Sequence record: OL825705.1
From: Escherichia phage vB_EcoM_DE7
Reading direction: 5' to 3' (one strand)
DNA: 64,000 nucleotides
In this document: positions 46,247 through 63,422 of the stretch, one piece after another
How the letters are laid out: every line of letters starts with the position of its first letter
Numbering within the stretch: the first letter of the stretch is position 1
Notes under the pieces: model-generated
Databases searched by the model: none
What the model was told of the DNA's origin: nothing
What the model saw: the letters and a program-made list of their open reading frames with translations, nothing else
Position numbers and translations under genes: made by a program

Positions 46247-46517
46247 AGAGAAGTGGGAGATTTTACCACTAGTTAGTGAGTGCGGCAATGGTTGTGAAAT
46301 GTACATGATACGTGGTCATGTTCCAGAACCAATTGCACTTGAGATGATAAACAATTTTACAGATGGTTCTTACAAAGACTTAGGAGAACCAACTGTCAAG
46401 CAACAATGGGTTAAACCTGTACCAGACAGCACAGGTAACTGTAGTGTACTTTATCACGTTGTAGACCCTGCAAAATGCAAATCTGCAATGGCAGTAACAA
46501 ACGTAACTTTTGATTGA
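46239..46517 (+). CDS. hypothetical protein
   Basis: 92-aa ORF. Confidence 0.3.
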   Translation: MAKEKWEILPLVSECGNGCEMYMIRGHVPEPIALEMINNFTDGSYKDLGEPTVKQQWVKPVPDSTGNCSVLYHVVDPAKCKSAMAVTNVTFD

Positions 46518-47410
46518 GAGAGAAAACTATGAAAACATCTATCCGTGTTACAGTTCATTCACCAACTAAAGGAACTCATGAAGAAGAGTTTAACATCATC
46601 CAATTCCCTTCTGGTGAGATTGGTGGAAACTTTTCACCAGAGTTTGTTGATTTTACTGCTTATGCAGCATCATCTATCAACAATGTGGTTATGATTGTAA
46701 AAGGTTATGATAAAGATACATTGTTTGCTGTGGCACTTGCTAAAGAGGCGGTGGACAACTTAGTACCTCATAAGTTTGCTATGAAGACCATTATCTTTTA
46801 CTATTTGCCAAATGCACGTTATGACCGTCACATGTTTAAAGGTGATGCAGCAGCTTTGAAAGTGTTTGCACAACAGGTTAATGCAATGGGTTTTGATGCA
46901 GTCTGTGCAGTTGACCCTCACAGCTATGTACCAGAGAACCTATTTAACTGCTTCCAGAGTATTCCTCAAAAGGAAATTGCAGTCCACTATGCAAATGACC
47001 CACTGGTTGATTACTTAGTAGCCCCAGATGCAGGTGCTGCTAAGAAGATTGCAGAGACTGCTAAAGAGGTGGATAAACCATACATCACAATGTCTAAAGT
47101 GCGTAACCTCAAGACTGGTGAGATTACCGGTATGCGAATCCTTGATGATATTGATTTGACCGATAAAACCGTTATGATTCTCGACGATATCTGTGATGGT
47201 GGTCGGACCTTCATAGAAGCAGCTAAACATCTTCGTGAAGCAGGTGCAAAACGTGTGGAGCTTTATGTAACTCATGGCATTTTCTCTAAAGGTGTTGAAA
47301 ACCTTCTTGACAATGGCATTGACCACATCTACACTACAAACTCTTTAGGGGAAGCTAAAGACCGTGGCTTAGCACATTATGGTCAAGTTACTGTAGCAAA
47401 CCTTGATTAA
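46514..47410 (+). CDS. ribose-phosphate pyrophosphokinase (PRPP synthetase) family protein
   Basis: PRS-like motifs YLPNARYDR, VDPHS, APDAGAAKK and PRPP-binding loop VMILDDICDGGRT. Confidence 0.7.
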   Translation: MREKTMKTSIRVTVHSPTKGTHEEEFNIIQFPSGEIGGNFSPEFVDFTAYAASSINNVVMIVKGYDKDTLFAVALAKEAVDNLVPHKFAMKTIIFYYLPNARYDRHMFKGDAAALKVFAQQVNAMGFDAVCAVDPHSYVPENLFNCFQSIPQKEIAVHYANDPLVDYLVAPDAGAAKKIAETAKEVDKPYITMSKVRNLKTGEITGMRILDDIDLTDKTVMILDDICDGGRTFIEAAKHLREAGAKRVELYVTHGIFSKGVENLLDNGIDHIYTTNSLGEAKDRGLAHYGQVTVANLD

Positions 47411-47417
47411 AACTTTA

Positions 47418-47442
47418 TAGGGGCTTAAAAGCCCCATTTTGA
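47418..47442 (+). terminator. rho-independent terminator
   Basis: GGGGCTT/AAGCCCC hairpin followed by ATTTT. Confidence 0.45.
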
Positions 47443-49238
47443 GAGAGATTAAAAAGATGACTAAATCACTTTATGCAGTACCAGCAGGTTTAAACGCAGA
47501 TGCTTACAAGGCATCACATATATATCAGTATCCAGATGCTACACAGTATCTTATGTTGAACCTGACACCACGTAGTGACAAATGGTTTAACAGTCCTTTA
47601 GCCATTGACGGTGTAGTTGCTTTTGGTATTCAACGTTTTGTTAAAGATTACCTGATAGACCACTGGAACGCCACCTTTTTTGAACGTGACAAAAAAGAAG
47701 CAATTGACGAAGTCTTAGAAGTCATGAACGGTGTTCTGGGTAAAGATGCTATTGGTCGAGAACACTGGGAAGCACTACATGACTTAGGTTATCTACCAGT
47801 TGAAGTGTACGCTGTAGAAGAAGGCACAGTTGTACCTATGCGTGTACCAATGATTGTCTTCCAGAACACTGTTTCAGGTTTCCATTGGGTAGCTGGGTAT
47901 CTGGAAGATGCTTTCTCTGCTGAGATTTGGAAGGCTTGCACCATTGCAACTATTGCATTGCACTACAAACGTATCTGTAAGAAGTGGGCTGACCTTACTT
48001 GTGACAATGACTTACATTTGCCTTATCAGTGCCATGACTTTGCCATGCGTGGTATGTCTGGCTTTACTGATGACGCATTTAACGCTGTAGGCCACTTAAC
48101 CAGCTTTAAAGGAACTGACAGCTTCCCTGCTGTGTATACAGCTAAACGCATCTATGGACAGTCCTACCCAATCTCTGATATTGGTAGTTCTGTGCCAGCT
48201 ACTGAACACTCTGTAATGTGTGCAAACATTGCTTGGGAAGGTGGTAATGAGTTGATTGAAGAAGAAAGACGCTTTAAAGGTGAGTTACAAACCTTCCGTC
48301 GTTTCTTAACAGAAACTTACCCAACTGGTATTGCAAGTGTTGTTTCAGACACTTATAATTTCTGGAGAACTGTATCAGAAATCTTACCAGCACTTCGTAA
48401 AGAGATTATGGAACGTGACGGCAAACTGGTAATTCGTCCTGACTCTGGCGACCCTGTACATATTGTCACAGGTTATAAAGCAATCCACTTAGAGTGTGCT
48501 AAAAAAGCTTATTACGAACACCTAAGCAAGCTGGAAGCCAGCGACACAAAGTTGAATGCTGTTCTGAACATGAATCTTGAAGACATTCACTATATTATGG
48601 CTGGGTGGTTACGTACAGAAGGCTATGAAATGGTGGTTGACAGAGAAGACTTTGAAGTAGCTGATACAGTGCTTCTGAAAGATGCCTACATCAACGGCTC
48701 TGCAAACGTTGTAACACGTCCTGTAGCAGAGATTGATGGGGCTATTAAGACCCTGTATAACATCTTCGGAGGGACTATCAACTCTAAAGGTTTTAAAGTA
48801 CTGGATGAACACATTGGCCTTATCTATGGTGACTCTATCACGCTGGAACGTGCAAACGAAATCCTGAAGCGTCTGTATGAAATGGGTTTTGCAAGCTCTA
48901 ACGTAGTGTTTGGTGTAGGTTCTTACACTTACCAGTACATGACTCGTGACACCTTTGCATTTGCTGTCAAAGCAACTCTTGCAAGCATTGGTGGCAAAGA
49001 GATTATGCTTGCAAAAGACCCTAAAACAGATAGCGGTGTTAAGAAGTCTGCTTTTGGTGGTGTAGCACCTGTGTGGGATGGCGATAAGCTGAAAGCTGTA
49101 GATGGCTATGGATTCCAGAGCTTTGCAGATGTGCTTGAACATCCAGCTTGTGCTTTACGTTTAGTCTTTAGTGACTCTGAGCAGTTCGGTTACACAACTC
49201 TTGGTGATATTCGAAATAATATTGACAAGCAACTCTAA
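47439..49238 (+). CDS. nicotinamide phosphoribosyltransferase family protein (Nampt/NadV-like)
   Basis: N-terminal DAYKASHIYQYPD matches the Nampt substrate-binding signature (DSYKVTHYKQYPP in human NAMPT, from memory); 599 aa. Confidence 0.8.
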   Translation: MREIKKMTKSLYAVPAGLNADAYKASHIYQYPDATQYLMLNLTPRSDKWFNSPLAIDGVVAFGIQRFVKDYLIDHWNATFFERDKKEAIDEVLEVMNGVLGKDAIGREHWEALHDLGYLPVEVYAVEEGTVVPMRVPMIVFQNTVSGFHWVAGYLEDAFSAEIWKACTIATIALHYKRICKKWADLTCDNDLHLPYQCHDFAMRGMSGFTDDAFNAVGHLTSFKGTDSFPAVYTAKRIYGQSYPISDIGSSVPATEHSVMCANIAWEGGNELIEEERRFKGELQTFRRFLTETYPTGIASVVSDTYNFWRTVSEILPALRKEIMERDGKLVIRPDSGDPVHIVTGYKAIHLECAKKAYYEHLSKLEASDTKLNAVLNMNLEDIHYIMAGWLRTEGYEMVVDREDFEVADTVLLKDAYINGSANVVTRPVAEIDGAIKTLYNIFGGTINSKGFKVLDEHIGLIYGDSITLERANEILKRLYEMGFASSNVVFGVGSYTYQYMTRDTFAFAVKATLASIGGKEIMLAKDPKTDSGVKKSAFGGVAPVWDGDKLKAVDGYGFQSFADVLEHPACALRLVFSDSEQFGYTTLGDIRNNIDKQL

Positions 49239-49244
49239 AAGTAT

Positions 49245-49628
49245 ATGATAAGAGGCTCCTACGGGAGCCTTTTTAATCTTCTGGAGAAGATTATGAAAAT
49301 CAAAGAAATGAATATCAATATTGTCTTAGAAGAACGTTGGGAGAACATCAAGAAGCCTGAAAATGGTCATAAGTTCCTCAACAAAATCTTAGTAGCAGCT
49401 AAAGAAGAACTGACTGGCAAGGTTGCAGCAGCAATCACAATAAAGGTGTGTGTAAAAGGTCTTCCAGACAATCACCAATTTGCACTTGACGAGTTTAAAG
49501 AGAGCTTCTACAATCCAAACAAACAGATGCTTGAAAGTAACTTTGCAGTATCTACAAGTATCGTCCATGACAGAAGCTTTATCCTTTACAAGAATATGAG
49601 AGGTGAGTCATGCAAGCATATTGGATAG
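49245..49628 (+). CDS. hypothetical protein
   Basis: 127-aa ORF after terminator hairpin GGCTCC-TACG-GGAGCC. Confidence 0.35.
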   Translation: MIRGSYGSLFNLLEKIMKIKEMNINIVLEERWENIKKPENGHKFLNKILVAAKEELTGKVAAAITIKVCVKGLPDNHQFALDEFKESFYNPNKQMLESNFAVSTSIVHDRSFILYKNMRGESCKHIG

Positions 49629-49786
49629 AAATTTTCCTGTCACTTGGTAGTGTAGCAGTATTTGTTTACCTTCTTTGCAAGTACTATGCAGAACACAAAA
49701 AATGTGACTTCTGTAATGGAGAAGGTTATACAAGAGCAGGTTGTTGCCCTATGTGTGGCGGTTCTGGTAAAATGTTTAATAAGTAA
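49610..49786 (+). CDS. small membrane peptide with two CxxCxGxG zinc-finger motifs (not in ORF track)
   Basis: 58 codons: hydrophobic segment then CDFCNGEGY and CPMCGGSGK. Confidence 0.3.
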   Translation: MQAYWIEIFLSLGSVAVFVYLLCKYYAEHKKCDFCNGEGYTRAGCCPMCGGSGKMFNK

Positions 49787-49814
49787 TTCAACAGTAAATT
49801 AAGAGGAAAGTATT

Positions 49815-52181
49815 ATGCGCATGGTAAACGACCACGCAGAAGTGATTAAGAGTTCAACTTCTTTAGAGACGTCTCAAGCACAGATTACAATGACACCCGA
49901 AATGTTCAGCCTTTTGAGTTCTGGTGTATATACATTTAAAGAGCGAGCAGTAATTCGTGAACTGTCATGTAACGCAGTAGATGCTCAGAAAGAAGCTGGA
50001 AAAGAGAACATCCCGTTCCATGTGCATTTACCTACTCGTTTTGAGCCTTACTTTGAAGTTCGTGATTTTGGAACTGGATTGACTCATGATAAAGTTATGA
50101 GTTTGTATCTAAATTACGGGGCTTCTACGAAGAATGACTCTAATGACTACATTGGTGCAATGGGTATCGGCTCAAAATCCCCATTTGCAATTGCTCAGTC
50201 ATTCACAGTATCTAGCTATGTTGATGGTGTTGTCAATAAGTACTCTGTTTATCTTGAGAATGGTATCCCTCAAGTAACTAAGCTGACCACCAACCCAACA
50301 AAAGAGCCTAATGGTTTAGCTGTACGTGTAGCAGTTGCTGACCATCGTATTTCAAAGTTCTTTGAAGAGGCTGGTAATGTATACTCATACTTTGCTGTAA
50401 AACCAGAAAGTAATATCGAGTATGACGATGTGTTAGCAGACATGAATGTCATTGCCCGTGAAGAAGGTGTTTATGATGCCATGATTCACAAACAAAGCTG
50501 GCGTTCTAGTGGCAACAGGACAGAGTTTAATGTGGTGATGGGTAACATTGCCTACCCAGTTAACATGGAAGCATTACTTGGTGATGATTTCTTCAAAGTC
50601 TTGCCAGAGTTTTTCCGTAGGAGCGTAGACCTTGTAAACATCTACATGCCTATTGGTTCAGTTGCTATTGCAGCTTCTCGTGAAGCATTGCAGATGAATG
50701 ACACGACAAAAAATGTTATCATCGAGGCTACTAAAAAGATAACTGAAGCAATTACAAAGGATGTTATCAAGAAAGTTAATAGTCAACCTACACTCATGGA
50801 TGCTGCACAGGCTTATGCTGAGTTACGCTTGAACTCACGAGAGATGTTTAATGCTGTGTGTCCAAAGCTAGAGTGGGGAGGCGTTAAGCTTGATTCTCTG
50901 GAAGAAGAATTACTAAACATTCGTCGTGGAATTATCTACGCAGAAGACGGCTCAGTTATCTATGAACGTGATGGTAAAGGTAATATTAAGGTTGATAGGA
51001 ACGGAAACAACATTCCTAAAGTAGATTATCTTTATGACCCAGTTGCTTATGTCAAGTTTAACTCTTTAGAGAGTAAGATTCGTGCAACAGCGCTTTCCTA
51101 CACTCAAGAGGCAAGTATGTTCAATATCTTTGGTGCAATGCGTAAAAGTCAAATTGAACAGTTTTTGTTTGTTATAAATGACCGTCGAAATAAAAACGGT
51201 ACTGAGAAGACTGTAGGACGCAACCAAATCTTGCGTGGTGCATGTCGAGACTATGCCAGTGAATCAAGTCTGTTTCACAGATACAATGGTATTGTCTTTG
51301 TATTCTCTAATGAGAAAGAGCTAGACGACTTAATCAATCTGCACAAACTTGATAAAAGCTTGTTAAAGATTGTGAAGATGTCTGATAAGGAACACCATTA
51401 TCAGCGTAAAGAAGCTGTAAGAGGCGTTGTAAAACTTTGGAAAGCTGTTCCAGCAGAAGGTGTAGCTTCCTATAAAGAGGTTTCAGAGGACTTTGATACA
51501 ATTGAAGAACCTCAGCTTTATATCAAGGCTGTTGGTGACACAGTTGATGGCGAATGTTTTTGCTCATCTCCAGAAGATGTAGCTAAGTCAGTTGCTAATG
51601 TTACAGGGAAGACAGTCTATGTTTTCCGAAAAGCGAATTGGAAAAAGATACCAGAAGACTGGATTGAAGTAGATGAGAAACTCTTGAACGACAGCTTAAC
51701 TGATGTTCATTGGATTAATCATAACAGGTATATGACACGTATCTATATGAATGGTGTCCTTGACCTCACAAGCAGTTGGATTATTGCCAGAAACTTTACG
51801 TTCAATAACAGGAAGATTTCTCGTGGCTATTGTTATTCACGGGATACAAACAAAACTATCTTCTTAGAAGGTAATGAAGATGCTGTAGAGGCAATCTTCG
51901 GTAAAATCCAATACGTTGCTGCACCGTTTGCATACACTTACACTGTTAGCAGGTTGCAAACTTTGAAAGAATGCCTTGACAACGATACAAAGCTGTACAA
52001 GAAAATCAAGAAAGCTGGTGACCGTATGGTCATTAAGGTGACAAACTATCTTTCAAAAAGAAAACAAGAAAACTTCTTGCTTTCTCATTTAGATTGGAAT
52101 AAAGTGTCACCCATCGAAGTGAGTAAGTTCTTAGGCTTTGATGTGAAGTGTGTTCCAGAAGGGACTACAATTTACGATTAA
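49815..52181 (+). CDS. rIIA: rIIA-like protein (N-terminal GHKL-type ATPase fold)
   Basis: 788 aa; Bergerat-fold-like motifs ELSCNAVDAQ, DFGTGLTHDKV, GAMGIGSKSPF; followed by rIIB-sized ORF. Confidence 0.5.
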   Translation: MRMVNDHAEVIKSSTSLETSQAQITMTPEMFSLLSSGVYTFKERAVIRELSCNAVDAQKEAGKENIPFHVHLPTRFEPYFEVRDFGTGLTHDKVMSLYLNYGASTKNDSNDYIGAMGIGSKSPFAIAQSFTVSSYVDGVVNKYSVYLENGIPQVTKLTTNPTKEPNGLAVRVAVADHRISKFFEEAGNVYSYFAVKPESNIEYDDVLADMNVIAREEGVYDAMIHKQSWRSSGNRTEFNVVMGNIAYPVNMEALLGDDFFKVLPEFFRRSVDLVNIYMPIGSVAIAASREALQMNDTTKNVIIEATKKITEAITKDVIKKVNSQPTLMDAAQAYAELRLNSREMFNAVCPKLEWGGVKLDSLEEELLNIRRGIIYAEDGSVIYERDGKGNIKVDRNGNNIPKVDYLYDPVAYVKFNSLESKIRATALSYTQEASMFNIFGAMRKSQIEQFLFVINDRRNKNGTEKTVGRNQILRGACRDYASESSLFHRYNGIVFVFSNEKELDDLINLHKLDKSLLKIVKMSDKEHHYQRKEAVRGVVKLWKAVPAEGVASYKEVSEDFDTIEEPQLYIKAVGDTVDGECFCSSPEDVAKSVANVTGKTVYVFRKANWKKIPEDWIEVDEKLLNDSLTDVHWINHNRYMTRIYMNGVLDLTSSWIIARNFTFNNRKISRGYCYSRDTNKTIFLEGNEDAVEAIFGKIQYVAAPFAYTYTVSRLQTLKECLDNDTKLYKKIKKAGDRMVIKVTNYLSKRKQENFLLSHLDWNKVSPIEVSKFLGFDVKCVPEGTTIYD

Positions 52182-52260
52182 AGTGTTTGACAAGGGGCTT
52201 TGAAGCCCCTTAGAATAGCCTTACAAAATGATTTATTAACTAACAAGAGAGAGTAATAAG

Positions 52261-53370
52261 ATGACTACTAAAACTAAAGCACAGATTGACGCAGAAATTT
52301 ACAAACTGGTTAAAGAAGGCAAGCTGACTAAAACAGCTATTGCACAGAAGTTCAACACTTCAACCCGTTCAGTTGGTCGTGCTGTAGAGCGTCATGAAGC
52401 AACCTTAAAGGGTAAGAAAAAGGCAGCTTCGACACCAGCTAAGAAGACTTTGAAGCAAGTTGCTAAGTCAGTTAAAAAGAAAGCTGGAAAACCAGTTGAA
52501 AAGGTTGTTAAAGACACTGTACAGAAAGTTCCAGTAAATAAACTGCACGAAGCTATGCAGAAAGATGACAAGATTGAGTACATGATTACTGGTGACTCTG
52601 TAATTATGACTTACGGTTCAGAATCTGAAATTGTTGAGTCTACTCATCCGAACTATCAAGAAATTGTAGTTCATGTTGTGAAAGGTGAGTTCAAGAAAGC
52701 ATTTGAACTGATGAACATTCGTAAGTCTATCGAAAACTTCACTCAGGGTGCTATCACAATCAAAGGTGACAAGTTATTCTACGGTGCTGTTGAGATGCGT
52801 TCTACTCTGGTTGACCGTATTCTTCACATGATGAAGACTGGTGATAAAGGTTTTGAACGACTTGTAATGTTCTTCGAAAAACTGATGGAAAACCCATCTA
52901 AAGATTCTGTAGAACAACTTTGGGGATTCGTATCTCACCTTGATGTTGAAATTGATGAAGAAGGTTACATCATTGGTTGGAAGAAAGTCTCTACTCGTGA
53001 AGGCAAGTTGGTTGACTCCCACACCTACAAAGTACCTAATGATTTGGGTAACATTGTAGAAATGCCACGTTGGATGGTTGACAACAACCGTAACGTAACT
53101 TGCTCTCAGGGTCTTCATGTTGGTGCTTGGGATTATGTTCGTTGCTTCTCAGGTGATACAATCCTGAAGGTTCGTGTCCATCCACGAGATGTTGTATCTG
53201 TTCCGACTGATTACAACGATATGAAGATGCGTTCATCCCGTTATGAAGTTGCAGCAATCGTTGATAATCAACGTAAAGTGTTGAAAGCATGGGACGGTAA
53301 GACTGAAGCTTTGCATGTCATCGTTGGCACTGCTGGTGAACTCATCTCCCAACGTAAACGTGAAATCTAA
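52261..53370 (+). CDS. rIIB: rIIB-like protein
   Basis: 369-aa ORF immediately downstream of the rIIA-like gene; positional inference. Confidence 0.4.
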   Translation: MTTKTKAQIDAEIYKLVKEGKLTKTAIAQKFNTSTRSVGRAVERHEATLKGKKKAASTPAKKTLKQVAKSVKKKAGKPVEKVVKDTVQKVPVNKLHEAMQKDDKIEYMITGDSVIMTYGSESEIVESTHPNYQEIVVHVVKGEFKKAFELMNIRKSIENFTQGAITIKGDKLFYGAVEMRSTLVDRILHMMKTGDKGFERLVMFFEKLMENPSKDSVEQLWGFVSHLDVEIDEEGYIIGWKKVSTREGKLVDSHTYKVPNDLGNIVEMPRWMVDNNRNVTCSQGLHVGAWDYVRCFSGDTILKVRVHPRDVVSVPTDYNDMKMRSSRYEVAAIVDNQRKVLKAWDGKTEALHVIVGTAGELISQRKREI

Positions 53371-53387
53371 TAAGTAATTTCTTAAAA

Positions 53388-53409
53388 GGCTGCTTCGGCG
53401 GCCTTTTTT
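53388..53409 (+). terminator. rho-independent terminator
   Basis: GGCTGC-TTCG-GCGGCC hairpin followed by TTTTTT. Confidence 0.65.
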
Positions 53410-53470
53410 ATTTGTATTTTGTGCAGAGTGCTGTATAATTGTTGTCACGATAAACTAAACAGGAGAACCA

Positions 53471-54019
53471 ATGAAGAAGTTGATTCTAGGTTTGTGCTTA
53501 ATGTTTACAGCACACTTATCTTATGCAGTTGACTGCCCAGAGCTATCAATTAGCCAAAAAGTTAACATGTTAAAAGCTTACCAGTATGGTGAGAATAATA
53601 TGGGGAAGGGCTGGGGTATTACTCTAGCAGCTATAGCCTTACAAGAGTCAGAGTTAGGTCTGAAGGTAGAGAATAAAAAGACCCATGACTATGGTATTTT
53701 CCAGAATCACTTGAAGACTGTTGTAAAGCGTAACAAAATCAGTCCTAATGTGGCTAAAAAGAAACTCTTAAAAGACTTTGACTATGCTGCAAAGGAAACA
53801 CACAAAGAGCTTGAGTTTTGGACTAAGGTACATGGTCAACCAAAGTCAAAGAAGACTTTACAAAAAGTTTTAGCGTCATATAATGCTGGGTATTCGTACA
53901 AAATCCCTAAAGCTAAGAAATACTCTCAAGATGTTTACAACAATATGAAAGTCATCGCTCAATGTGAATTTGCAACAAACATTTCTAAGGTAAACCATGA
54001 AAAAATTAAGAAAGTCTGA
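53471..54019 (+). CDS. secreted lytic transglycosylase-like protein (possible endolysin)
   Basis: Signal-peptide-like N-terminus MKKLILGLCLMFTAHLSYA; SLT-like AIALQESELG ... YGIFQ. Confidence 0.4.
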   Translation: MKKLILGLCLMFTAHLSYAVDCPELSISQKVNMLKAYQYGENNMGKGWGITLAAIALQESELGLKVENKKTHDYGIFQNHLKTVVKRNKISPNVAKKKLLKDFDYAAKETHKELEFWTKVHGQPKSKKTLQKVLASYNAGYSYKIPKAKKYSQDVYNNMKVIAQCEFATNISKVNHEKIKKV

Positions 54020-54692
54020 TGAAGTACTGTGTCATGCTTATGACTTACATCCTCATGAGTTAGGCCTTGATTCCTGTGTATGGACCCCAGAACAGTGCAG
54101 AGATTTTGAAGATACTGCAAGAGAGGTTGTATGCTCACTTGAAGAGTTCCACACATCAGAATCAATTGTGAACGTTGTGGACAAAGAGACTGGACAATCT
54201 ATAGGTGTAAGACGTGACAGTTTAGTCATAGTCAATAAAGACCTTGTAGAAAAAGGTAACCTCATCTTAGCAGATATTGATGGTGTTCTTACAAATTTTA
54301 ATCACGAAGATTACTCAACGGAATTGATTGATGGGTCATTTTCACAGTACACTAATTTGCTTGACTCTGTAAGAGCAAAACCAACGTATGTTTTCAATAT
54401 TATTGATGCAATTGCTAACCATGCTGCCATTGGACTCTTGACAGCGAGGGGTGAATCTCAGAGAATACCTACTGAGATGTTTTTAAGGCATTACATAGAG
54501 CATGATTACATGCTTTTTATGCGTGGTTTTGGAACTAACTCGATAAATGCAGAAAGTTTGAAAGTGAGGATGATTCAGTCTTGCATTATTCCTTACTTTA
54601 ATATAGTATGCTTTATAGAAGATACAGAGAAGAATGTTCAGAAGGTAAACAGAATCCTTCCACACATCAAAACCATGTTAGTTAAACATTGA
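53997..54692 (+). CDS. HAD-superfamily phosphatase-like protein
   Basis: HAD motif I ILADIDGVLTN and downstream FIEDTEKN. Confidence 0.5.
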   Translation: MKKLRKSDEVLCHAYDLHPHELGLDSCVWTPEQCRDFEDTAREVVCSLEEFHTSESIVNVVDKETGQSIGVRRDSLVIVNKDLVEKGNLILADIDGVLTNFNHEDYSTELIDGSFSQYTNLLDSVRAKPTYVFNIIDAIANHAAIGLLTARGESQRIPTEMFLRHYIEHDYMLFMRGFGTNSINAESLKVRMIQSCIIPYFNIVCFIEDTEKNVQKVNRILPHIKTMLVKH

Positions 54693-55220: not shown

Positions 55221-55568
55221 ATGACATTTAAAGAGTTCTGTCAAGCTACTTTCATAATTGTTTTCTTAGTTGGAGCAGGTGTCTGGGGAGGATACTCTTA
55301 CAGAGACTATCAAGTTGTTGAATCTGAGCTAAACAATGAGAAACTAATCAGTGTTGCTAAAGATGCTTATCAGGAAGGTTTAGCCACACTCAGCACCAAT
55401 TACAAAAATGATTTGAAAGATGTGCTTGCTAAGAATAAGCATACAAAAGAGGTACTAACGTATGAAAAGACTAAGCCAGAGTTTTATAATGTTTGTGTTA
55501 CTGATAATTATGTCAGGGTGTTCAACGAACAAAGTGAACAGTACATTCAAAAACTCCCAAGTAAGTGA
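55221..55568 (+). CDS. i-spanin (Rz-like)
   Basis: N-terminal TM (FIIVFLVGAGVWGGY) followed by charged coiled-coil; overlaps a lipoprotein ORF in another frame. Confidence 0.55.
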   Translation: MTFKEFCQATFIIVFLVGAGVWGGYSYRDYQVVESELNNEKLISVAKDAYQEGLATLSTNYKNDLKDVLAKNKHTKEVLTYEKTKPEFYNVCVTDNYVRVFNEQSEQYIQKLPSK

Positions 55569-55731
55569 GAGTGACAAGTACACTCAAGAAGAGTCAAGAT
55601 TCACTGTCAAAGGCAACACTGGTAGTGATGTGGCAGCAGCCCTTGAGTTTTATCGTGATGGTTTTTACCAGTGCACAATCAAAGCTAATAATCTTATTGA
55701 TATGATTTTATTAGGAAACAAACATCAATGA
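55462..55731 (+). CDS. o-spanin (Rz1-like outer-membrane lipoprotein)
   Basis: Signal peptide with lipobox-like IMSGC; gene starts inside the 3' part of the i-spanin gene in a different frame. Confidence 0.55.
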   Translation: MKRLSQSFIMFVLLIIMSGCSTNKVNSTFKNSQVSESDKYTQEESRFTVKGNTGSDVAAALEFYRDGFYQCTIKANNLIDMILLGNKHQ

Positions 55732-55997
55732 AAGAGAATGAAGACACTTTCTATGTGGAAGGGTACTTACTGTTACCACGACCAAAAGAAACTTATATGC
55801 GGGTTGATTTCTCACCAACAATTATGGATAACGTAATGTGTCATATCTTTATGCAAGGTGTCACAGCACAGCTTAAGCATGTTGGTAAAGAGTGCAAAAT
55901 AAAGGTTGACACTCATCCAGAAATCAAAGAGAATCACTACACATGGTTCTTACCAGACTCTAAAGAAATCTTAGCAGTTCTAAAAACGAGGAAGTAA
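55728..55997 (+). CDS. hypothetical protein
   Basis: 89-aa ORF. Confidence 0.3.
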   Translation: MKENEDTFYVEGYLLLPRPKETYMRVDFSPTIMDNVMCHIFMQGVTAQLKHVGKECKIKVDTHPEIKENHYTWFLPDSKEILAVLKTRK

Positions 55998-55999
55998 CT

Positions 56000-56323
56000 A
56001 TGCAGATTAATGGAAGAGATTTTGTAGCAGTTTACTACGAGAAAGATAAAGAAGTTGGCGTAGCACAAGTATCTTATGGTAATGGTAAGTGGTTGTATGG
56101 GACAATCGCAGTAGTCGGGGCAAGAAGTGATACAAAAACTTTTAAAGATTGTGTTGACCTTCTTGAAGAATCCATCCACAATCATTGGTGTCTGATATGG
56201 ATGACTGACAACGAAGTGATAGAACGCTTCAAAAAGATTGGTATCAACATTGATAGCATTGAGCATGTTGATTTGTATGAGCTAACTGAGAAGGTAAACT
56301 ATGAAAGCTCTAGAGGTAGTTGA
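56000..56323 (+). CDS. hypothetical protein
   Basis: 107-aa ORF. Confidence 0.3.
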   Translation: MQINGRDFVAVYYEKDKEVGVAQVSYGNGKWLYGTIAVVGARSDTKTFKDCVDLLEESIHNHWCLIWMTDNEVIERFKKIGINIDSIEHVDLYELTEKVNYESSRGS

Positions 56324-56528
56324 CAAAGACACTGGAGAAGTCATATCTGCATGTGTTTTCATAAGCGATGACACAGTGATACCATTTTACAACCTTGATG
56401 GTTTTAGTTTTACAGGGATAACTCCAGAAGAATACTTTGAAGACCTCACCTTTGCCAGAATCTCTATAGATACATTCTATAAATGTTTCTATGATGAAGG
56501 TAAAGAGTTACGAGAAACTGAACTATAA
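56301..56528 (+). CDS. hypothetical protein
   Basis: 75-aa ORF. Confidence 0.3.
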   Translation: MKALEVVDKDTGEVISACVFISDDTVIPFYNLDGFSFTGITPEEYFEDLTFARISIDTFYKCFYDEGKELRETEL

Positions 56529-56539
56529 GGCGTATATTT

Positions 56540-56740
56540 ATGGCTGACTTCTGCAAAGATTGTGCTATCGAAATGTTCGGACGTGATACAGGAGACTTAA
56601 AAGGTCTTATCACTGAAGATGACTTTAAAGCTGGCTATGCAATGCCAGTAATCTGTGAAGGTTGTGGATGTATCTGGGTAGACCACGAAGGACAACGTGT
56701 AAAACCTTCAGAAGATAAAGAATCTTGGGAGAGATGCTAA
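56540..56740 (+). CDS. small zinc-binding protein (hypothetical)
   Basis: 66 aa with CKDC ... CEGCGC. Confidence 0.3.
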   Translation: MADFCKDCAIEMFGRDTGDLKGLITEDDFKAGYAMPVICEGCGCIWVDHEGQRVKPSEDKESWERC

Positions 56741-57526
56741 ATGGGTATTGTAAAAATAATCAATGGGGATATCTTCTCCGCATTTGATAAAGGTAAGTTT
56801 GATATCATTGGTCACGGTTGCAACTGTATGAACTTAATGGGTGCAGGTATCGCTGACAAGATTTCTAAACTTTACCCAAAAGCATATGAGACTGATACAG
56901 AAGTTTATCTGTATGCAGGTGGTATAGGCCACAAACCCTGTGAAAATTTACTAGGCAATTTCTCTGTAGCACGTTTAGAACAAGGCCGTATAGCTAACCT
57001 TTACACTCAGCTTAAGACTGGTAAAGATGCCCGATACAGTGCTTTAGAGTCATCTTTGAAACAGCTTAACAGATACTGTGGAGTCAATCAGTTGAAGAAA
57101 GTTGGGTTACCTATGATTGGTGCAGGTATCGGTGGACTAGACTCTCAAGCCGTCACAGTCATCATTAATCAGGTGATGAAGAGCGTAGATGTTTACCTGT
57201 ATGTCTACGAGACAGAGATGTACAACGAGTTACACTCAGGTTGGAAGAACTACTGCGAACCGGAATACTTTGCAGGTGTAGTAACGTTCACAGACAATAC
57301 AGTTACCCTCTTCAGACGAAGAAAGGGTAAGGTACATCAAAGTAACCCTCCGGTTGAAAAGATGTCCCTAAGTAACGCTCTAGTTACCCACCTGTCGAAG
57401 AGCAATCACAGAATTGCCGTAACATTTGGCAGTGATGCAGATACATATATCTATGCAAGAACTGATGAGGATGTTGAGGAAATTTTCTCATCATCAGAAG
57501 TTACCTTCTTAGACGCAAAGAACTAA
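56741..57526 (+). CDS. macrodomain protein (TARG1/OARD1-type ADP-ribose hydrolase-like) with C-terminal extension
   Basis: NGDIFSAF ... DIIGHGCNCMNLMGAGIA matches the GDLF ... HC.S ... MGAGIA pattern of OARD1-type macrodomains (from memory). Confidence 0.5.
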   Translation: MGIVKIINGDIFSAFDKGKFDIIGHGCNCMNLMGAGIADKISKLYPKAYETDTEVYLYAGGIGHKPCENLLGNFSVARLEQGRIANLYTQLKTGKDARYSALESSLKQLNRYCGVNQLKKVGLPMIGAGIGGLDSQAVTVIINQVMKSVDVYLYVYETEMYNELHSGWKNYCEPEYFAGVVTFTDNTVTLFRRRKGKVHQSNPPVEKMSLSNALVTHLSKSNHRIAVTFGSDADTYIYARTDEDVEEIFSSSEVTFLDAKN

Positions 57527-57595
57527 GAAACTCTGTAGAATATTCACAATAGACTAAGCCTTTCTTATCTGGTAAATTTTTCAGGTAAGGAGGGC

Positions 57596-57790
57596 TTTTT
57601 CATTTCAGGATTGTGCAGGTAGATTTCTGGACAGAAATCTGTAGAGAGGATTTTGAACTCCAAAGAGAAAATTCATTTTCAAACTGTGCAGGTAATCTCC
57701 AAAGAGCTTTTTCATTTTCAAAACGTGCAGAGAAAAATCAGGTCGGGCAAGAAAAATCATTTTCGAATTGTGCAGGTAGGTGGGTGCAGG
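57596..57790. repeat. iteron-like direct repeat array (4-5 copies of CATTTTCAAAnTGTGCAGGTA)
   Basis: Copies at ~57601, ~57673, ~57714, ~57759 plus a GTGCAGGTGGGG extension; spacing 41-72 bp; non-coding. Confidence 0.6.
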
Positions 57791-57954
57791 TGGGGATGTC
57801 GCCATTTCTCACAAGGCTACCACATCTAGAAATAAAAGTCAACAGAAAAATTTGTAGCGGCTTGAAAAATAATTCTTGATTGTAGTTCTGTTTTGTGGTA
57901 GTCGCGTGCGCCCGTTTCATTACATTTTTGCCAAAAATATTTTTAAAATTTTTA

Positions 57955-58048
57955 TTGACTCCTCGAACGGGTTTTTATAGTATTTGCATCAACGGGGAGG
58001 GAATGACCTTCCCCACTAAGTAAAACCCTTAAACTAGGAGATTCAAAA
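57955..58048 (+). promoter_or_regulatory. type-1 leader cassette: promoter (TTGACT-17-TAGTAT) + conserved hairpin leader + RBS
   Basis: Core ATCAACGGGGAGGGAATGACCTTCCCCACTAAGTAAAACCCTTAAACTAGGAGATTCAAAA ends at ATG 58049. Confidence 0.6.
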
Positions 58049-58240
58049 ATGGCATCAAGAAAAATCAAAGTTGGCGACGAGGTTAACGTAAAACATGAAT
58101 ACTCTTACAAAATGTTAACTATTCGCTCTTACAAGGTTTATCAGGTGGAAGCTATCCACGAAGATGGAACATTTTCACTAAAAGGATATAGCGAACGTTT
58201 CCCTGCTGAATTGTTCGAAAAATGGAGTACTAAAAAATGA
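58049..58240 (+). CDS. small hypothetical protein (63 aa)
   Basis: ORF begins directly after a type-1 leader. Confidence 0.45.
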   Translation: MASRKIKVGDEVNVKHEYSYKMLTIRSYKVYQVEAIHEDGTFSLKGYSERFPAELFEKWSTKK

Positions 58241-58443
58241 TTTACAGCCGTGAATTGATGGTTACAACTAACGTTAACACAAATGTAAAACGTTTTTATA
58301 TGCAAATCTGCGGCGCATGGCGTAGAATATCAGAATCTGACTATTGCAACTATGTAGAAACGGCTATTGATTCTAATTGCTATCTTACAAAGAATACAAA
58401 GCGACATATAAAACAGACAGCAGTTTATTACTACGATATATAA
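58237..58443 (+). CDS. small hypothetical protein (68 aa)
   Basis: ATGA-coupled to the upstream gene. Confidence 0.35.
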   Translation: MIYSRELMVTTNVNTNVKRFYMQICGAWRRISESDYCNYVETAIDSNCYLTKNTKRHIKQTAVYYYDI

Positions 58444-58532
58444 AAGTACTTTACAAGGGGCTTAAAAGCTGATATCTTAAGCCCCAGATAAAAAGCTTTA
58501 TCACATTAACCTTAAACTAGGAGATTCAAAAG
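58441..58532 (+). promoter_or_regulatory. type-2 leader cassette (divergent copy): stem-loop + conserved RBS
   Basis: Starts at upstream stop codon; GGGGCTTAA ... TTAAGCCCC hairpin, then CCTTAAACTAGGAGATTCAAAAG before ATG 58533. Confidence 0.5.
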
Positions 58533-58913
58533 ATGGCTTATCGTGCACCTAAATTCATCAATAAAGACAACTTCCGCAACGCACTGGAAAAATCACTTGA
58601 TGAGAATTTTACAGGTCAGATTATCGTTGTTCACGCATTCAATTTTAAGTATGATGTAAACGGGAATAGAATCAACCATTACACAGCAACCATGTTAGAT
58701 GGTACGCTATCAAGTGAAAAAGCTGTACTGAATGCACTTGCAGGACGTGGTAAAAACCTGATAAGATGCGATAAGAGACGTTATCAGGGTGGCGCATATG
58801 GTTATGATGATGCTGTTTATCATCTTGAAAATATGGGCTATTCAGTGGAAAAAGCTGGAGTATCTCAAATAATCGGCAGTGATGGATATGTGACAATTTT
58901 CAAAATTAACTAA
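58533..58913 (+). CDS. small hypothetical protein (126 aa)
   Basis: ORF begins directly after a type-2 leader. Confidence 0.45.
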   Translation: MAYRAPKFINKDNFRNALEKSLDENFTGQIIVVHAFNFKYDVNGNRINHYTATMLDGTLSSEKAVLNALAGRGKNLIRCDKRRYQGGAYGYDDAVYHLENMGYSVEKAGVSQIIGSDGYVTIFKIN

Positions 58914-59001
58914 TAAAGTACTTTACAAGGGGCTTATAGTTCGATAAAGTAAGCCCCAGATAAAGAGATTTACCACTAAATCCTAAATTGGAGATTCAAA
59001 A
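58912..59001 (+). promoter_or_regulatory. type-2 leader cassette: stem-loop + conserved RBS
   Basis: AGTACTTTACAAGGGGCTTATAGTTCGATAAAGTAAGCCCCAGATAAAGAGATTTACCACTAAATCCTAAATTGGAGATTCAAAA ends at ATG 59002. Confidence 0.55.
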
Positions 59002-59406
59002 ATGGCTATCAATAAACGCGAATTATCAATTTTAAAAGCACGTTTGACCGTTAACCGGATTAATGTTATTACGTCATCAGCACCAGACGAAACACTGCAA
59101 AACATTATTGGGAAGATTCAAAGTGTTATCTTAGACGTTGAAAACGTGAAAAACTCACTGACTGACGTTGCAGCAGGTATCACGCTAGACGGTGCACAAT
59201 ATGAAATGGCTGACATGTTAGGCAAATCTAAGGTAATGAATAGGGAGCTTGATTTGAAAATGTTTCGGTTTGCTGTTAAAGTGTGGCTATCTGTCGAGTA
59301 TGACGCTAACTTTGCAATCGCTGACTTTTTCGCCACTTGGTTACAACGTAATTTGACAAATCATGATTTTCGTGATATCTGTGATGCAATTTATGCAGAA
59401 ATCTAA
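59002..59406 (+). CDS. small hypothetical protein (134 aa)
   Basis: ORF begins directly after a type-2 leader. Confidence 0.45.
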   Translation: MAINKRELSILKARLTVNRINVITSSAPDETLQNIIGKIQSVILDVENVKNSLTDVAAGITLDGAQYEMADMLGKSKVMNRELDLKMFRFAVKVWLSVEYDANFAIADFFATWLQRNLTNHDFRDICDAIYAEI

Positions 59407-59415
59407 AAATTTTTA

Positions 59416-59510
59416 TTGACACTGATTTTTAGATATATTAAATTATACATCAACGGGGAGGGAATGACCTTCCCCACTAAGTAAAACCCTTAAACTAGGA
59501 GATTCAAAAA
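59416..59510 (+). promoter_or_regulatory. type-1 leader cassette: promoter (TTGACA-17-TAAATT) + hairpin leader + RBS
   Basis: TTGACA 59416-21, TAAATT 59439-44, conserved core 59449-59510, ATG 59511. Confidence 0.6.
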
Positions 59511-59714
59511 ATGGCTATTATCAACGGTTTAAACATTGAAACTACTCACATCAAAGATATTAAGGTCGGTGATATAGTCCTTTTTCACGGCGTAGAAAAA
59601 ACCGTCACCGCAAAGGATATCAAAGAGGACTCATTCATGGGCCGGTCTCTCTTCGGTGATTCGTATTGCTTAGGTTACCGTGCAGTTTTAAAAGTTGTCA
59701 AAAATAATAAATAA
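59511..59714 (+). CDS. small hypothetical protein (67 aa)
   Basis: ORF begins directly after a type-1 leader. Confidence 0.45.
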   Translation: MAIINGLNIETTHIKDIKVGDIVLFHGVEKTVTAKDIKEDSFMGRSLFGDSYCLGYRAVLKVVKNNK

Positions 59715-59799
59715 AGTACTTTACAGGGGGCTTATAGTTCGATAAAGTAAGCCCCAGATAAAGAGATTTACCACTAAATCCTAAATTGGAGATTCTAAA
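59712..59799 (+). promoter_or_regulatory. type-2 leader cassette: stem-loop + conserved RBS
   Basis: Near-identical to copies at 58912 and 61762; ends at ATG 59800. Confidence 0.55.
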
Positions 59800-60342
59800 A
59801 TGAAATGCTTTCATGGTACTACTCAAGAAAACTTCACCAACCTGATTAATAACGGTGATAAGCCATCAGGTGCATGGAATTGTTCGGATATGGATGGAAA
59901 TTTTTACGTTTATCCAGAAAATAAAATCTATGGCGACGATGCGGAAGAGATAATCTCTGAAGGTATCCAACAGGCTCTGGGCAATGCCGCTATTACCGCA
60001 GCTTTTCAGATGAAAACCCAAAACATTGTTATCTTGGAACTTGATATTCCAGAAGATGAGTTAAACGATGATTACTCATGTGATAATATGTCTGGCGTGG
60101 CAAGTTTTACAGGATATTTTGATATAAGCTGGATTAAAAAAGTTTACACCACTGAATTTAATGCTATGTTTTCACCATTTTGTCTACCTTCACTGGATAA
60201 CCCGAATTTAAACTATATTGATGAGTCTCTGGAACTCCTCGCTAAAAGCGTTCAACAGTCCGACAGTATTCAGGTTTTTTGTGACATCATGGACACACTG
60301 ACGGGAAACATCATAGAAAGAGATTTAAAGGGCTTTTTATAA
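59800..60342 (+). CDS. hypothetical protein (180 aa)
   Basis: ORF begins directly after a type-2 leader. Confidence 0.45.
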   Translation: MKCFHGTTQENFTNLINNGDKPSGAWNCSDMDGNFYVYPENKIYGDDAEEIISEGIQQALGNAAITAAFQMKTQNIVILELDIPEDELNDDYSCDNMSGVASFTGYFDISWIKKVYTTEFNAMFSPFCLPSLDNPNLNYIDESLELLAKSVQQSDSIQVFCDIMDTLTGNIIERDLKGFL

Positions 60343-60374
60343 TAACCTATACAATCACCTTATAAACACTGATT

Positions 60375-60395
60375 AGCCCCTTCTAGGGGCTTTTA
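60375..60395 (+). terminator. rho-independent terminator-like hairpin
   Basis: AGCCCC-TTCTA-GGGGCT followed by TTTT, then SD AGGAGG for next gene. Confidence 0.45.
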
Positions 60396-60408
60396 GGAGG
60401 TTTTAATC

Positions 60409-60642
60409 ATGCTTACAACCGTTTACCTCATCCTTTCTATTTGTAACGGTCATTCATGCGATTTTAAAGGGCTTGAGGAGTTTACAGGGAGTAAAGAAAA
60501 TGCTATTCAGGTTTGCCAGATAGCAAGGCAAGACTATCCCGCCAGTGATGATATTCAATGTTACTTTAAGACAGAAGACAGCGACGGCGTTTATTTTGAC
60601 AGCGTTGATGGTCAATATGAAATTATCATTGATAAAGACTAG
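60409..60642 (+). CDS. small hypothetical protein (77 aa)
   Basis: ORF with strong SD AGGAGG. Confidence 0.4.
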   Translation: MLTTVYLILSICNGHSCDFKGLEEFTGSKENAIQVCQIARQDYPASDDIQCYFKTEDSDGVYFDSVDGQYEIIIDKD

Positions 60643-60662
60643 ACAAGCCGGATAAAAGCCGG

Positions 60663-60730
60663 TAAATTACTAATCAACGGGGAGGGAATGACCTCCCCAC
60701 TAAACAAAGTCCTAAACTGGAGTTTTCACA
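60663..60730 (+). promoter_or_regulatory. type-1 leader cassette (variant copy)
   Basis: TAAATT then ATCAACGGGGAGGGAATGACCTCCCCACTAAACAAAGTCCTAAACTGGAG, ending at ATG 60731. Confidence 0.5.
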
Positions 60731-60877
60731 ATGTCAAATGCAGTTGAAACGGTTTTTAACAATCCGGTATTTTCAGAGATGATTTTCTCGTTTATTATGA
60801 TGTTACTTGTTAAAACCATGAAAAAGGCCGAAAAATTACACTCAAAGAAAAAAGCTATTGCAAACCGTTTTAAGTAA
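60731..60877 (+). CDS. small hydrophobic peptide (48 aa, not in ORF track)
   Basis: Hand-translated ORF starting at the ATG positioned by the type-1 leader. Confidence 0.3.
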   Translation: MSNAVETVFNNPVFSEMIFSFIMMLLVKTMKKAEKLHSKKKAIANRFK

Positions 60878-60925
60878 AGCTATAGTATCAATCAAGCCCA
60901 CTTCCTAAACTGGAGATTCAAAAAA

Positions 60926-61267
60926 ATGGCTTATGTAACTGTAATTACTGATAAAGCTGGGTCATCTTGGTCAACTCAAGTAAGCGATAAGATAACACCT
61001 ATGCAGTGCCTAAAATACTTTGAGCAATGGAATAAAGGCGAGGATGTAAGCCCCTTCCAAGTAATGCAGATTATCCATACAGACGACGAAGGGGTTAAAA
61101 CGGTTTTAAATAGTGAGTACTATGCAACCCGATTTGAAACGAGATGTAAAACGATGAAACTTCTACGTGAATCTGGTTATTCTCATATTGCCGCGCTAAT
61201 CTGGGATGACTTGCTAAAAAATCAGCGTATCAGCTACGTAAAACCTGAAAAAATATTCATCAGCTAA
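60926..61267 (+). CDS. small hypothetical protein (113 aa)
   Basis: Preceded by degenerate leader ...CCTAAACTGGAGATTCAAAAAA. Confidence 0.4.
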   Translation: MAYVTVITDKAGSSWSTQVSDKITPMQCLKYFEQWNKGEDVSPFQVMQIIHTDDEGVKTVLNSEYYATRFETRCKTMKLLRESGYSHIAALIWDDLLKNQRISYVKPEKIFIS

Positions 61268-61397
61268 TCAATAACTTACAAAAAACTTTCAAAAAAGTGT
61301 TGACAATACCCCTTGACATTGGTAATGTTGTTCGAGGGGGTTTATCTTAAAGGGATTCACTTAAAAGATTTCTTTAAAGATAAACTTAAAAAATTGC

Positions 61398-61491
61398 TTG
61401 CAAAGGCAAATCAAATCAAGTAAATTACTAATCAACGGGGAGGGAATGGCCTTCCCCACTAAATAAAACCCTTAAACTAGGAGATTCTAAA
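61398..61491 (+). promoter_or_regulatory. type-1 leader cassette: promoter (TTGCAA-17-TAAATT) + hairpin leader + RBS
   Basis: Conserved core 61432-61491 ending at ATG 61492. Confidence 0.6.
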
Positions 61492-61764
61492 ATGTATACT
61501 ACTAACAACGGTCGCACCTTAAACGTAACACTGCGCCACTATGTAAACGGTGTAATGCACTTCGAAGATTTACAAGCTGAACAACATATTCTGAATTGGC
61601 AACTTGCAGGATTCCAAAAAACTGCTACCGGATACGGGAAAAAGATTCCAACTAGTTGGAAAGTATACTATGAAGGACGTTTGCGCAGAATTTATCAGGA
61701 TGTTTACAGCAATAGCGCAACAAGTTACATCATAGTAAAAGGTAAAAAATTACACTTAGTGTAA
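61492..61764 (+). CDS. small hypothetical protein (90 aa)
   Basis: ORF begins directly after a type-1 leader. Confidence 0.45.
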   Translation: MYTTNNGRTLNVTLRHYVNGVMHFEDLQAEQHILNWQLAGFQKTATGYGKKIPTSWKVYYEGRLRRIYQDVYSNSATSYIIVKGKKLHLV

Positions 61765-61849
61765 AGTACTTTACAGGGGGCTTATAGTTCGATAAAGTAA
61801 GCCCCAGATAAAGAGATTTACCACTAAATCCTAAATTGGAGATTCAAAA
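61762..61849 (+). promoter_or_regulatory. type-2 leader cassette: stem-loop + conserved RBS
   Basis: Near-identical to copies at 58912 and 59712; ends at ATG 61850. Confidence 0.55.
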
Positions 61850-62128
61850 ATGGCTATTATCAAAAACGTTGTAATTCCTGCAAAAACTCGCGATGACGCT
61901 CGCATCATGGCTAAAAAATTATGTGGAAAAGTGGTTGACAACGGAAAACAAGCTGCTGTAAGGTGGGGCGTGAAAGCTGATAAGCAACTAACCTTAAAAC
62001 GCAGTTCAAACAACCTTTTTAAAGGTGTAAAATCACTCGGTAAAGTGAACGTTTTTACCAAAAAAGGCTATAAAATGCACTTATCATTGATTGGAAGCAT
62101 TAAAAGATTCGGTGATGAATATCTTTAA
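61850..62128 (+). CDS. small basic hypothetical protein (92 aa)
   Basis: ORF begins directly after a type-2 leader. Confidence 0.45.
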   Translation: MAIIKNVVIPAKTRDDARIMAKKLCGKVVDNGKQAAVRWGVKADKQLTLKRSSNNLFKGVKSLGKVNVFTKKGYKMHLSLIGSIKRFGDEYL

Positions 62129-62151
62129 AAATTAAATTAAGAGGAAACATC

Positions 62152-62484
62152 ATGCTAATGATGGGAACCACTGCAATCATCGCCATTATAGCCCTTTATA
62201 AGGCTTACAGCGCCTACAATCTGGCAAGTAAGGCAATCACGCAACAGGTTAATAATAGCCTTGTAATGAGCTTTCTCGAGCGTTTAAGCGATGAGCAATT
62301 GAAACGGCTAGAAATGAGTTTCAGATTCAAAGCGAAAACCTATCAGATAAGTGGCATCTTAAAAGATGATTTTCAGTTGGTTGATGATTATAACTCACTG
62401 ATAAATGCTTTAAATATCAGTGACTTAAAAGACTATTACGCTGTAATTGTTCAAGAAATGAGCAAACGAAAAAATTCCTCTTGA
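62152..62484 (+). CDS. small hypothetical protein with N-terminal hydrophobic segment (110 aa)
   Basis: ORF with SD AAGAGGAAA. Confidence 0.4.
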   Translation: MLMMGTTAIIAIIALYKAYSAYNLASKAITQQVNNSLVMSFLERLSDEQLKRLEMSFRFKAKTYQISGILKDDFQLVDDYNSLINALNISDLKDYYAVIVQEMSKRKNSS

Positions 62485-62574
62485 TTTTGGTTTTAAAAGC
62501 AAGTAAATTACTAATCAACGGGGAGGGAATGGCCTTCCCCACTAAATAAAACCCTTAAACTAGGAGATTCTAAA
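62481..62574 (+). promoter_or_regulatory. type-1 leader cassette: promoter (TTGATT-17-TAAATT) + hairpin leader + RBS
   Basis: Conserved core 62514-62574 ending at ATG 62575. Confidence 0.6.
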
Positions 62575-63105
62575 ATGAACAAGTTCAAAGCTATCAACTT
62601 CATCCGCTCAAATAGTGTTATGTCAAAACCTGTTAAAGACACTTACGAATTCCGTTGTAATGGTGTACACTTTGCAACCATCACCAAATCAGAAAACGGG
62701 GCTTATTACATCCATCGCCGTAATGTTGCAACTGTTGTAGTCTCTCATTTTATGCAAGCGGTCGCGGAACTTCTCCCGATGTTTTTGGGTCTTTACTTGG
62801 ATGAGTGTAAAAACGTTCACAATCACGTTAAAAACCTTTTAAACGGTTATAAAATGGCTTACGAGCGTTCTCTCAAGTACTTAAACAAGTTTTATAAAGC
62901 CCCTGTAAACACTGTTTCAATGGCTTACAGTGTAAGCGGTGAGCTGGTTAGTCTCTTCGAAGTGGAAGAAATTGAACTATATAACTCACGTCCTAGCGGT
63001 TACGCTAAAACCATCGGCGAAGGCTTAACGTTCAATATCAAGAATTTAGAAAAAACTTTAAAAGATATTGAAAAAGATATTGACGAAACAATCAAAAATC
63101 TGTAA
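62575..63105 (+). CDS. hypothetical protein (176 aa)
   Basis: ORF begins directly after a type-1 leader. Confidence 0.45.
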   Translation: MNKFKAINFIRSNSVMSKPVKDTYEFRCNGVHFATITKSENGAYYIHRRNVATVVVSHFMQAVAELLPMFLGLYLDECKNVHNHVKNLLNGYKMAYERSLKYLNKFYKAPVNTVSMAYSVSGELVSLFEVEEIELYNSRPSGYAKTIGEGLTFNIKNLEKTLKDIEKDIDETIKNL

Positions 63106-63173
63106 ATTGCCAATCAACGGGGAGGGAATGACCTTCCCCACTAAGTAAAGTCCTTAAACTAGGAGATTCTAAA
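63080..63173 (+). promoter_or_regulatory. type-1 leader cassette: promoter (TTGACG-17-TAAATT) + hairpin leader + RBS
   Basis: -35 lies inside the 3' end of the upstream gene; conserved core 63113-63173 ending at ATG 63174. Confidence 0.6.
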
Positions 63174-63422
63174 ATGGCAACTATCCGCGCAATTGTAAAT
63201 TCTTATGGCTGCTACACTCTGGATGTTAAATTTGATATTGGTGGAACTGATGAATGCTTTTCATTAGTGAAGACGGTTATCAAGCAAGTTATCCCAGATT
63301 ATAACCCTACTGATGACTTCTGGAAAGATGCCGTGAAAGAGGCGTTAAACGATGAATACCATTACCATTACTGGGGTGATTTGATTGTATCCCTGTACTA
63401 CGATAAAAAAGGCACTAACTAA
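63174..63422 (+). CDS. small hypothetical protein (82 aa)
   Basis: ORF begins directly after a type-1 leader. Confidence 0.45.
   Translation: MATIRAIVNSYGCYTLDVKFDIGGTDECFSLVKTVIKQVIPDYNPTDDFWKDAVKEALNDEYHYHYWGDLIVSLYYDKKGTN

Follow-up and report, generated by a model that had tools for sequence, protein, structure and literature searches.

Escherichia phage vB_EcoM_DE7 (record OL825705.1) carries between 46.5 and 63.4 kb of the 64,000-nt stretch analysed here, the window, a run of genes that a preliminary description took as a possible accessory or counter-defence island, and the question is whether this segment is one such island. The phage is a Felixounavirus (a Felix O1-like myovirus): 278 phage records match at 92–96% identity, nearly all of them Felixounavirus. 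All genes in 46514–63422 lie on the + strand, GC content is 0.37–0.41 throughout with no compositional anomaly, a tRNA search of the window returned none, and the annotations of related phages show no integrase in the equivalent region. With good confidence, we regard the segment as the distal third of a long rightward early/middle transcription unit, made up of two things, a block at 46.5–57.5 kb and an array of small genes at 58.0–63.4 kb, rather than a single island. Its boundaries are functional rather than insular, because an orthologue of a validated anti-retron gene lies just outside the start and position 63422 is simply where the rightward transcription unit ends.

Results

The features listed in the preliminary description (a PRS/Nampt-like pair, rIIA/rIIB, a HAD phosphatase, a macrodomain protein and small ORFs) all lie where it put them (Table 1). 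The segment holds 24 further + strand ORFs of 48–182 aa, all of which match PHROGs and all but two of which, the spanin genes, fall in families of unknown function. Internal promoters are enriched as claimed, with 72 promoter-like sites against 49.4 ± 5.7 expected (45 against 48.8 ± 7.6 in the preceding 18 kb). The 'many terminators' do not stand out: the count of 16 is not significantly above the 12.4 ± 3.1 expected, and some five of those on the + strand are convincing (49253, 53384, 55180, 57556 and 60379).

Table 1. Features of the segment and its left flank (window positions; aa, amino acids).
Feature	Position	Strand	Basis or remark
gp77 orthologue	45731-46246	+	92.4% aa identity to Bas63 gp77; just outside the segment start
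Putative Adps (ADP-ribose pyrophosphokinase, NARP1 enzyme 1)	46529-47410 (alternative start 46514)	+	PRPS-like Pfam/PHROG
Putative Namat (nicotinamide ADP-ribose transferase, NARP1 enzyme 2)	47457-49238 (alternative start 47439)	+	NAPRTase/PHROG 448
Promoter-like site TTGACA-16-TATGAT	49222-49249	+	Promoter scan
Terminator-like hairpin and T-run	49253-49277	+	Just 3' of Namat stop codon; repeat family D9
rIIA	49815-52181	+	PHROG 612, 1.4e-189; N-terminal GHKL/HSP90-like ATPase region
Promoter/stem-loop TTGACA-[GGGGCTTTGAAGCCCC]-TAGAAT	52187-52216	+	Upstream of rIIB
rIIB	52261-53370	+	PHROG 609, 3.6e-89; 82.7% identity to Bas63 gp85
Terminator	53384-53407	+	Downstream of rIIB
Secreted 182-aa protein	53471-54019	+	PHROG 600, 1.1e-57
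HAD-type phosphatase	53997-54692	+	PHROG 3970 'polynucleotide kinase', 1.6e-133
i-spanin	55221-55568	+	PHROG 1152 Rz-like, 1e-40
o-spanin	55462-55731	+	Overlaps i-spanin; PHROG 456, 6.7e-5 (weak); lipobox IMSGC 55507-55521
Macrodomain protein	56741-57526	+	Pfam Macro 1.2e-6; Poa1p/TARG1-clade macro domain aa 1-167
ORF-free region, 522 bp	57527-58048	+	Conserved in 25/25 loci
Strong terminator	57556-57597	+	Hairpin -25.8 kcal/mol, z -6.6
Four iterons TCATTT-N7-GTGCAG	57600, 57673, 57712, 57757	+	Within ORF-free region
Array of 14 small early genes, 48-180 aa	58049-63422	+	PHROGs of unknown function; nearly all unannotated
Cassette family A, four copies	58444-58532, 58914-59001, 59715-59799, 61765-61849	+	Repeat D2
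Cassette family B, copies 1-3 of six	57944-58048, 59407-59510, 60643-60730	+	Repeats D1, D4
Cassette family B, copies 4-6 of six	61387-61491, 62485-62574, 63106-63173	+	Repeats D1, D4
g180, 180 aa	59800-60342	+	Widespread phage protein family; weak ADP-ribosyltransferase-fold signals, HGT...Y...D-x-SC-x-NM

Conservation divides the segment. By blastn of the window DNA against 83 IMG/VR loci, expressed as the share present among informative relatives, 46514–56300 is present in 98.7%, the structural and replication blocks in 94%, and 56301–63422 in 81%, with a mosaic pattern. Gene by gene, 46.5–56.3 kb is present in 93–100% of relatives, other genera included. The claim that the segment is unlike the conserved blocks hence holds for 56.3–63.4 kb and fails for 46.5–56.3 kb, 58% of the segment, which is as conserved as the core.

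The 'PRS/Nampt pair' appears from homology to be NARP1 (Adps and Namat), orthologous to Bas63 gp79/gp80, and the former label is a misannotation corrected by the NARP1 paper (bioRxiv 10.1101/2024.02.11.579819). The usual annotations are 'ribose-phosphate pyrophosphokinase' for Adps and 'Nampt' for Namat. Adps (Pfam Pribosyltran 3e-12, Pribosyl_synth 4.6e-9; PHROG 619 3.5e-99) shares 80.5% aa identity with gp79, with a diverged N-terminal part, and is found in 21 of 22 informative loci; among NCBIfam models the generic TIGR01251 subfamily cut-off is the only one that it clears, and it falls far under every PRPP-synthetase equivalog cut-off. Namat (Pfam NAPRTase 6e-35; PHROG 448 1.6e-202) shares 95.8% aa identity with gp80, and its best solved relatives are SPbetaL1 Namat structures 9W5W/9W5X (E 2e-129), compared with about 1e-41 for true Nampts. 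It bears the selectivity-clamp motif GSYTYQYMTRD at 48918–48950 (Namat motif GSX-phi-X-phi-X-phi-TRD, defined in PMC12774641). The pair is intact in 225 of 255 records. As in Bas63/JohannRWettstein, of the same genus and with the same gene pair, position and order, the two genes are adjacent and their 28-nt spacer contains a stem-loop; the HNH homing endonuclease that separates the two genes in Felix O1, D4, pinkbiff and other phages is absent. For Bas63 gp79/gp80, rebuilding of NAD+ and defeat of Sir2-HerA have been shown experimentally (bioRxiv 10.1101/2024.02.11.579819), and Bas63 NARP1 counters Sir2-HerA, retron Ec86 and hhe (bioRxiv 10.1101/2024.02.11.579819; 10.1101/2024.10.10.617714). 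Just upstream of the segment, the product of 45731–46246 had no match in Pfam and NCBIfam scans; its Bas63 orthologue, gp77, counters retron Ec67 according to PhageMaP (bioRxiv 10.1101/2024.10.10.617714).

The rIIA protein matches HSP90/sacsin-like NCBIfam models at aa 30–134 and is 97.7% identical to Bas63 gp84. In Bas63, rIIA/rIIB (gp84/gp85) counter qatABCD, and their deletion causes a 1e4–1e5 loss in EOP on qatABCD (bioRxiv 10.1101/2024.10.10.617714). The secreted 182-aa protein, present in 29 of 29 loci, gives a weak lytic-transglycosylase signal (Pfam SLT 0.0012, below cut-off); an annotation note in the Felix O1 record places its orthologue in the T4 vs-regB interval. The HAD phosphatase carries the motifs DIDGV (54273–54287), LLTAR and IEDTEKN; searches gave no Pfam match, no PDB sequence match and no kinase P-loop, and its weaker PHROG 415/505 matches span aa 84–219 only, the phosphatase half of the Pnk profiles. 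Its relative in T4 is the half of Pnk that acts as 3'-phosphatase. The likeness to T4 consists of adjacent rIIA–rIIB and a Pnk phosphatase-domain protein, in PHROG families named for T4-type proteins; in the window these counterparts are clustered within one 8-kb block and the Pnk relative is without the kinase domain. The Bas63 record annotates the spanin orthologues as i-spanin and o-spanin.

Could the whole segment nevertheless be a single hypervariable accessory island, set apart from the core, that gathers uncharacterised anti-defence genes? By megablast, at least 80% of the segment is covered in only 18 of 278 records, whereas equal-sized core blocks reach this in 232 of 385 and 244 of 301, but the contrast is confounded: many GenBank records open at rIIA, which splits the segment, and these breaks together with gene reordering account for the low coverage. 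The island would also agree with the enriched promoter-like sites and with dispensability in Bas63, where PhageMaP found 46–66 kb 'uniformly nonessential', the listed fitness scores of genes 93–96, 99 and 100 being positive across the conditions shown and those of gene 98 sparse and some negative (bioRxiv 10.1101/2024.10.10.617714). Judged by these orthologues, the window segment would be dispensable in the laboratory too. For 46.5–56.3 kb the conservation profile already refutes an island, and for the segment as a whole we hold it improbable: the GC anomaly, tRNA and integrase looked for are absent as described, variable spots occur outside as well (44674–45356, just upstream, present in 32% of relatives; the tail fibre at 15–17 kb), and the main functions have been characterised already. 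Less credible still is a purely housekeeping role: PRPP and NMN from the enzyme pair would raise the supply of NAD and nucleotides, rII would do no more than set the time of lysis, and the small genes would be of the usual host-takeover kind. The generic Pfam, NCBIfam and PHROG names and the 2010 interpretation of Felix O1 (PMC3185647) agree with it. However, Bas63 overcomes Sir2-HerA even in a pncC nadR host, and with the SPbetaL1 homologue of Adps no product could be measured in a canonical Prs-type assay, whereas ADPR and ATP were turned into ADPR-PP (both bioRxiv 10.1101/2024.02.11.579819); the window Namat has the ADPR-PP selectivity motif, and deletion of g79, g80, g84 or g85 lowers fitness specifically on defence-carrying hosts.

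The macrodomain protein is an Adpp homologue located away from NARP1. Adpp is the NARP1-associated ADPR-1''-phosphatase (bioRxiv 10.64898/2026.01.28.702374); Felixounaviruses are absent from Table S1 of that study, whose search was limited to ±2 genes around NARP1. BLASTP aligns the window protein with the validated Adpp of Vibrio phage Gary (E 3e-13, 27% identity) and with PN09 (1e-17, 34%), and an AF2 model (pLDDT 89) gives Foldseek matches to TARG1, DarG and Poa1p. Compared with the NARP1-AP systems (Adps-Adpp-Namat; Vibrio phage Gary, Pakpunavirus, Vibrio phages), the window has a full-length Adpp homologue at 25–35% identity, Gln at the position of the TARG1 catalytic Lys, and NARP1 in the same genome; it differs in that the gene lies outside the operon, 7.5 kb and 13 genes downstream of NARP1 and beyond three terminators, and in an extra C-terminal domain of about 90 aa. 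The Bas63 orthologue, gp95, is 94.6% identical; gene 95 fitness is positive throughout, and its deletion is costless in the tested conditions, aRES not among them (bioRxiv 10.1101/2024.10.10.617714). Notes in the Felix O1 record place the macro protein in the T4 tk-vs interval.

Downstream, the ORF-free region also holds an AT-rich stretch, a promoter at 57955–57983 and the first B cassette; we found no RNA covariation and no Rfam family there. The array beyond it varies, with per-gene presence in relatives of 12–96%, and the array genes that were scanned gave no Pfam match. Early expression has been seen in Felix O1, where transcription of ORFs 13, 16, 20, 21 and 22 is highest at 5 min (PMC3185647). 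The ADP-ribosyltransferase-fold signals of g180 are weak but consistent.

The array is punctuated by two families of cassettes of about 85–105 bp. In A cassettes the -35 is TTTACA and the -10, TAAAGT, is overlapped by a stem-loop GGGGCTTA..TAAGCCCC; a leader and a Shine-Dalgarno site complete the unit. In four of the six B cassettes, a promoter-like site of the TTGACA/TTGACT-17-TAAATT/TAGTAT type is followed by ATCAAC, a stem-loop GGGGAGGG..CCTTCCCC and the shared leader CCTTAAACTAGGAGATTC. The A motif has four matches and the B motif five exact matches, with none expected for either, all confined to 57.99–63.15 kb of the window, and in Bas63 a cassette stands ahead of nearly every array gene. 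Promoter and terminator activity are predicted, the latter doubtful because most of the stem-loops are without a T-run. The commonest gains and losses of array genes end at cassettes (starting 3–8 nt past an ATG and ending 5–108 nt before the next), although intergenic endpoints are also expected from selection against broken genes and so do not prove cassette-mediated recombination.

The cassettes resemble the PeSLs (promoter-early stem-loops) of T4-type phages (Arbiol et al. 2010, PMC2839356; PMC4122927) in their sigma70-like promoter, G/C-rich stem-loop, Shine-Dalgarno site and ATG, and in the place of the stem-loop, which lies within the -35/-10 interval, overlaps these elements or follows them closely. 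Both are concentrated before variable-region ORFans and bound indels or rearrangements. The window cassettes come from another lineage (Ounavirinae), are known here from sequence, and form only two families, whose near-identical copies share exact stretches of up to 81 nt. In the genome paper on Felix O1 two such repeats appear simply as 'direct repeats', and in the literature searched we found no paper connecting PeSLs with Felix O1-like phages.

Two local readings have rivals of their own. The macrodomain protein might be a TARG1/DarG-like ADP-ribosyl glycohydrolase acting on DNA or proteins, for example against DarT-type toxins, rather than a phosphatase feeding NARP1. TARG1 and the DarG macrodomain are its top fold and profile matches, slightly above Poa1p, DarG is the sole NCBIfam match, and the extra domain could bind a target. 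But the DarG model scores 46.6 bits, with its cut-off at 250, and the residues catalytic in TARG1, K84 and D125, have Q90 and G131 as their counterparts here; Gary Adpp shares the Gln and also lacks the Asp, and the full-length alignment is to NARP1-associated Adpp proteins, which together leave a glycohydrolase rather unlikely. The family also occurs in phages such as T4, where tblastn matches the gene annotated tk.4 in T4-like records. Such phages are not known to carry NARP1 genes, and if they carry none, Adpp-like homology alone does not imply partnership with NARP1. The other question concerns the array order, which none of the relatives compared shares; exchange between cassettes would account for it, and so would misassembly. 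An assembly artefact in 58.9–62.6 kb is a serious possibility, if not the reading we prefer: the order is what the other route through the interleaved A..B..A..B repeats would yield, the junction cassettes are identical over 73 nt (A58914/A61765) and 75 nt (B61387/B62485), long enough to mislead a short-read assembler, and the g126-A-g134 junction occurs in 0 of 30 comparators and 0 of 214 GenBank records. However, an identical structure would arise if A x A excision and then B x B reintegration had really taken place, this circular-intermediate route has been shown for PeSLs (PMC2839356), Bas63 has a 66-nt exact A–A substrate at the right places, and gene content changes too (the X genes between g92 and g110 absent, g63 and g48 present).

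Discussion

The block at 46.5–57.5 kb, whose conservation spans the genus and extends to related genera, would serve counter-defence and host interaction. Adps may pyrophosphorylate ADP-ribose freed by NAD+-cleaving defence systems, and Namat may join ADPR-PP and nicotinamide, so that NAD+ is regenerated; the macrodomain protein might convert ADPR-1''-phosphate to ADPR, thereby feeding NARP1. The rIIA and rIIB proteins would block abortive-infection systems (RexAB in T4, qatABCD in Bas63). By analogy with Bas63, whose NARP1 and rIIA/rIIB orthologues counter defences, the anti-defence role guessed at the outset is probably right for at least four genes; the word 'uncharacterised' falls away, since that role is already published.

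In the array, nearly every gene has its own cassette of about 85–105 bp, in which a sigma70-like promoter and a G/C stem-loop are joined to a common leader and a Shine-Dalgarno site. By recombining with one another, the near-identical cassettes may add, delete and reorder single-gene modules, as PeSLs do in T4-type phages, and the genes so carried are candidates for host takeover or anti-defence. Most of what the segment holds was known before, and the new leads are few, among them the Adpp homologue away from NARP1 and a conserved 522-bp stretch with four iterons.

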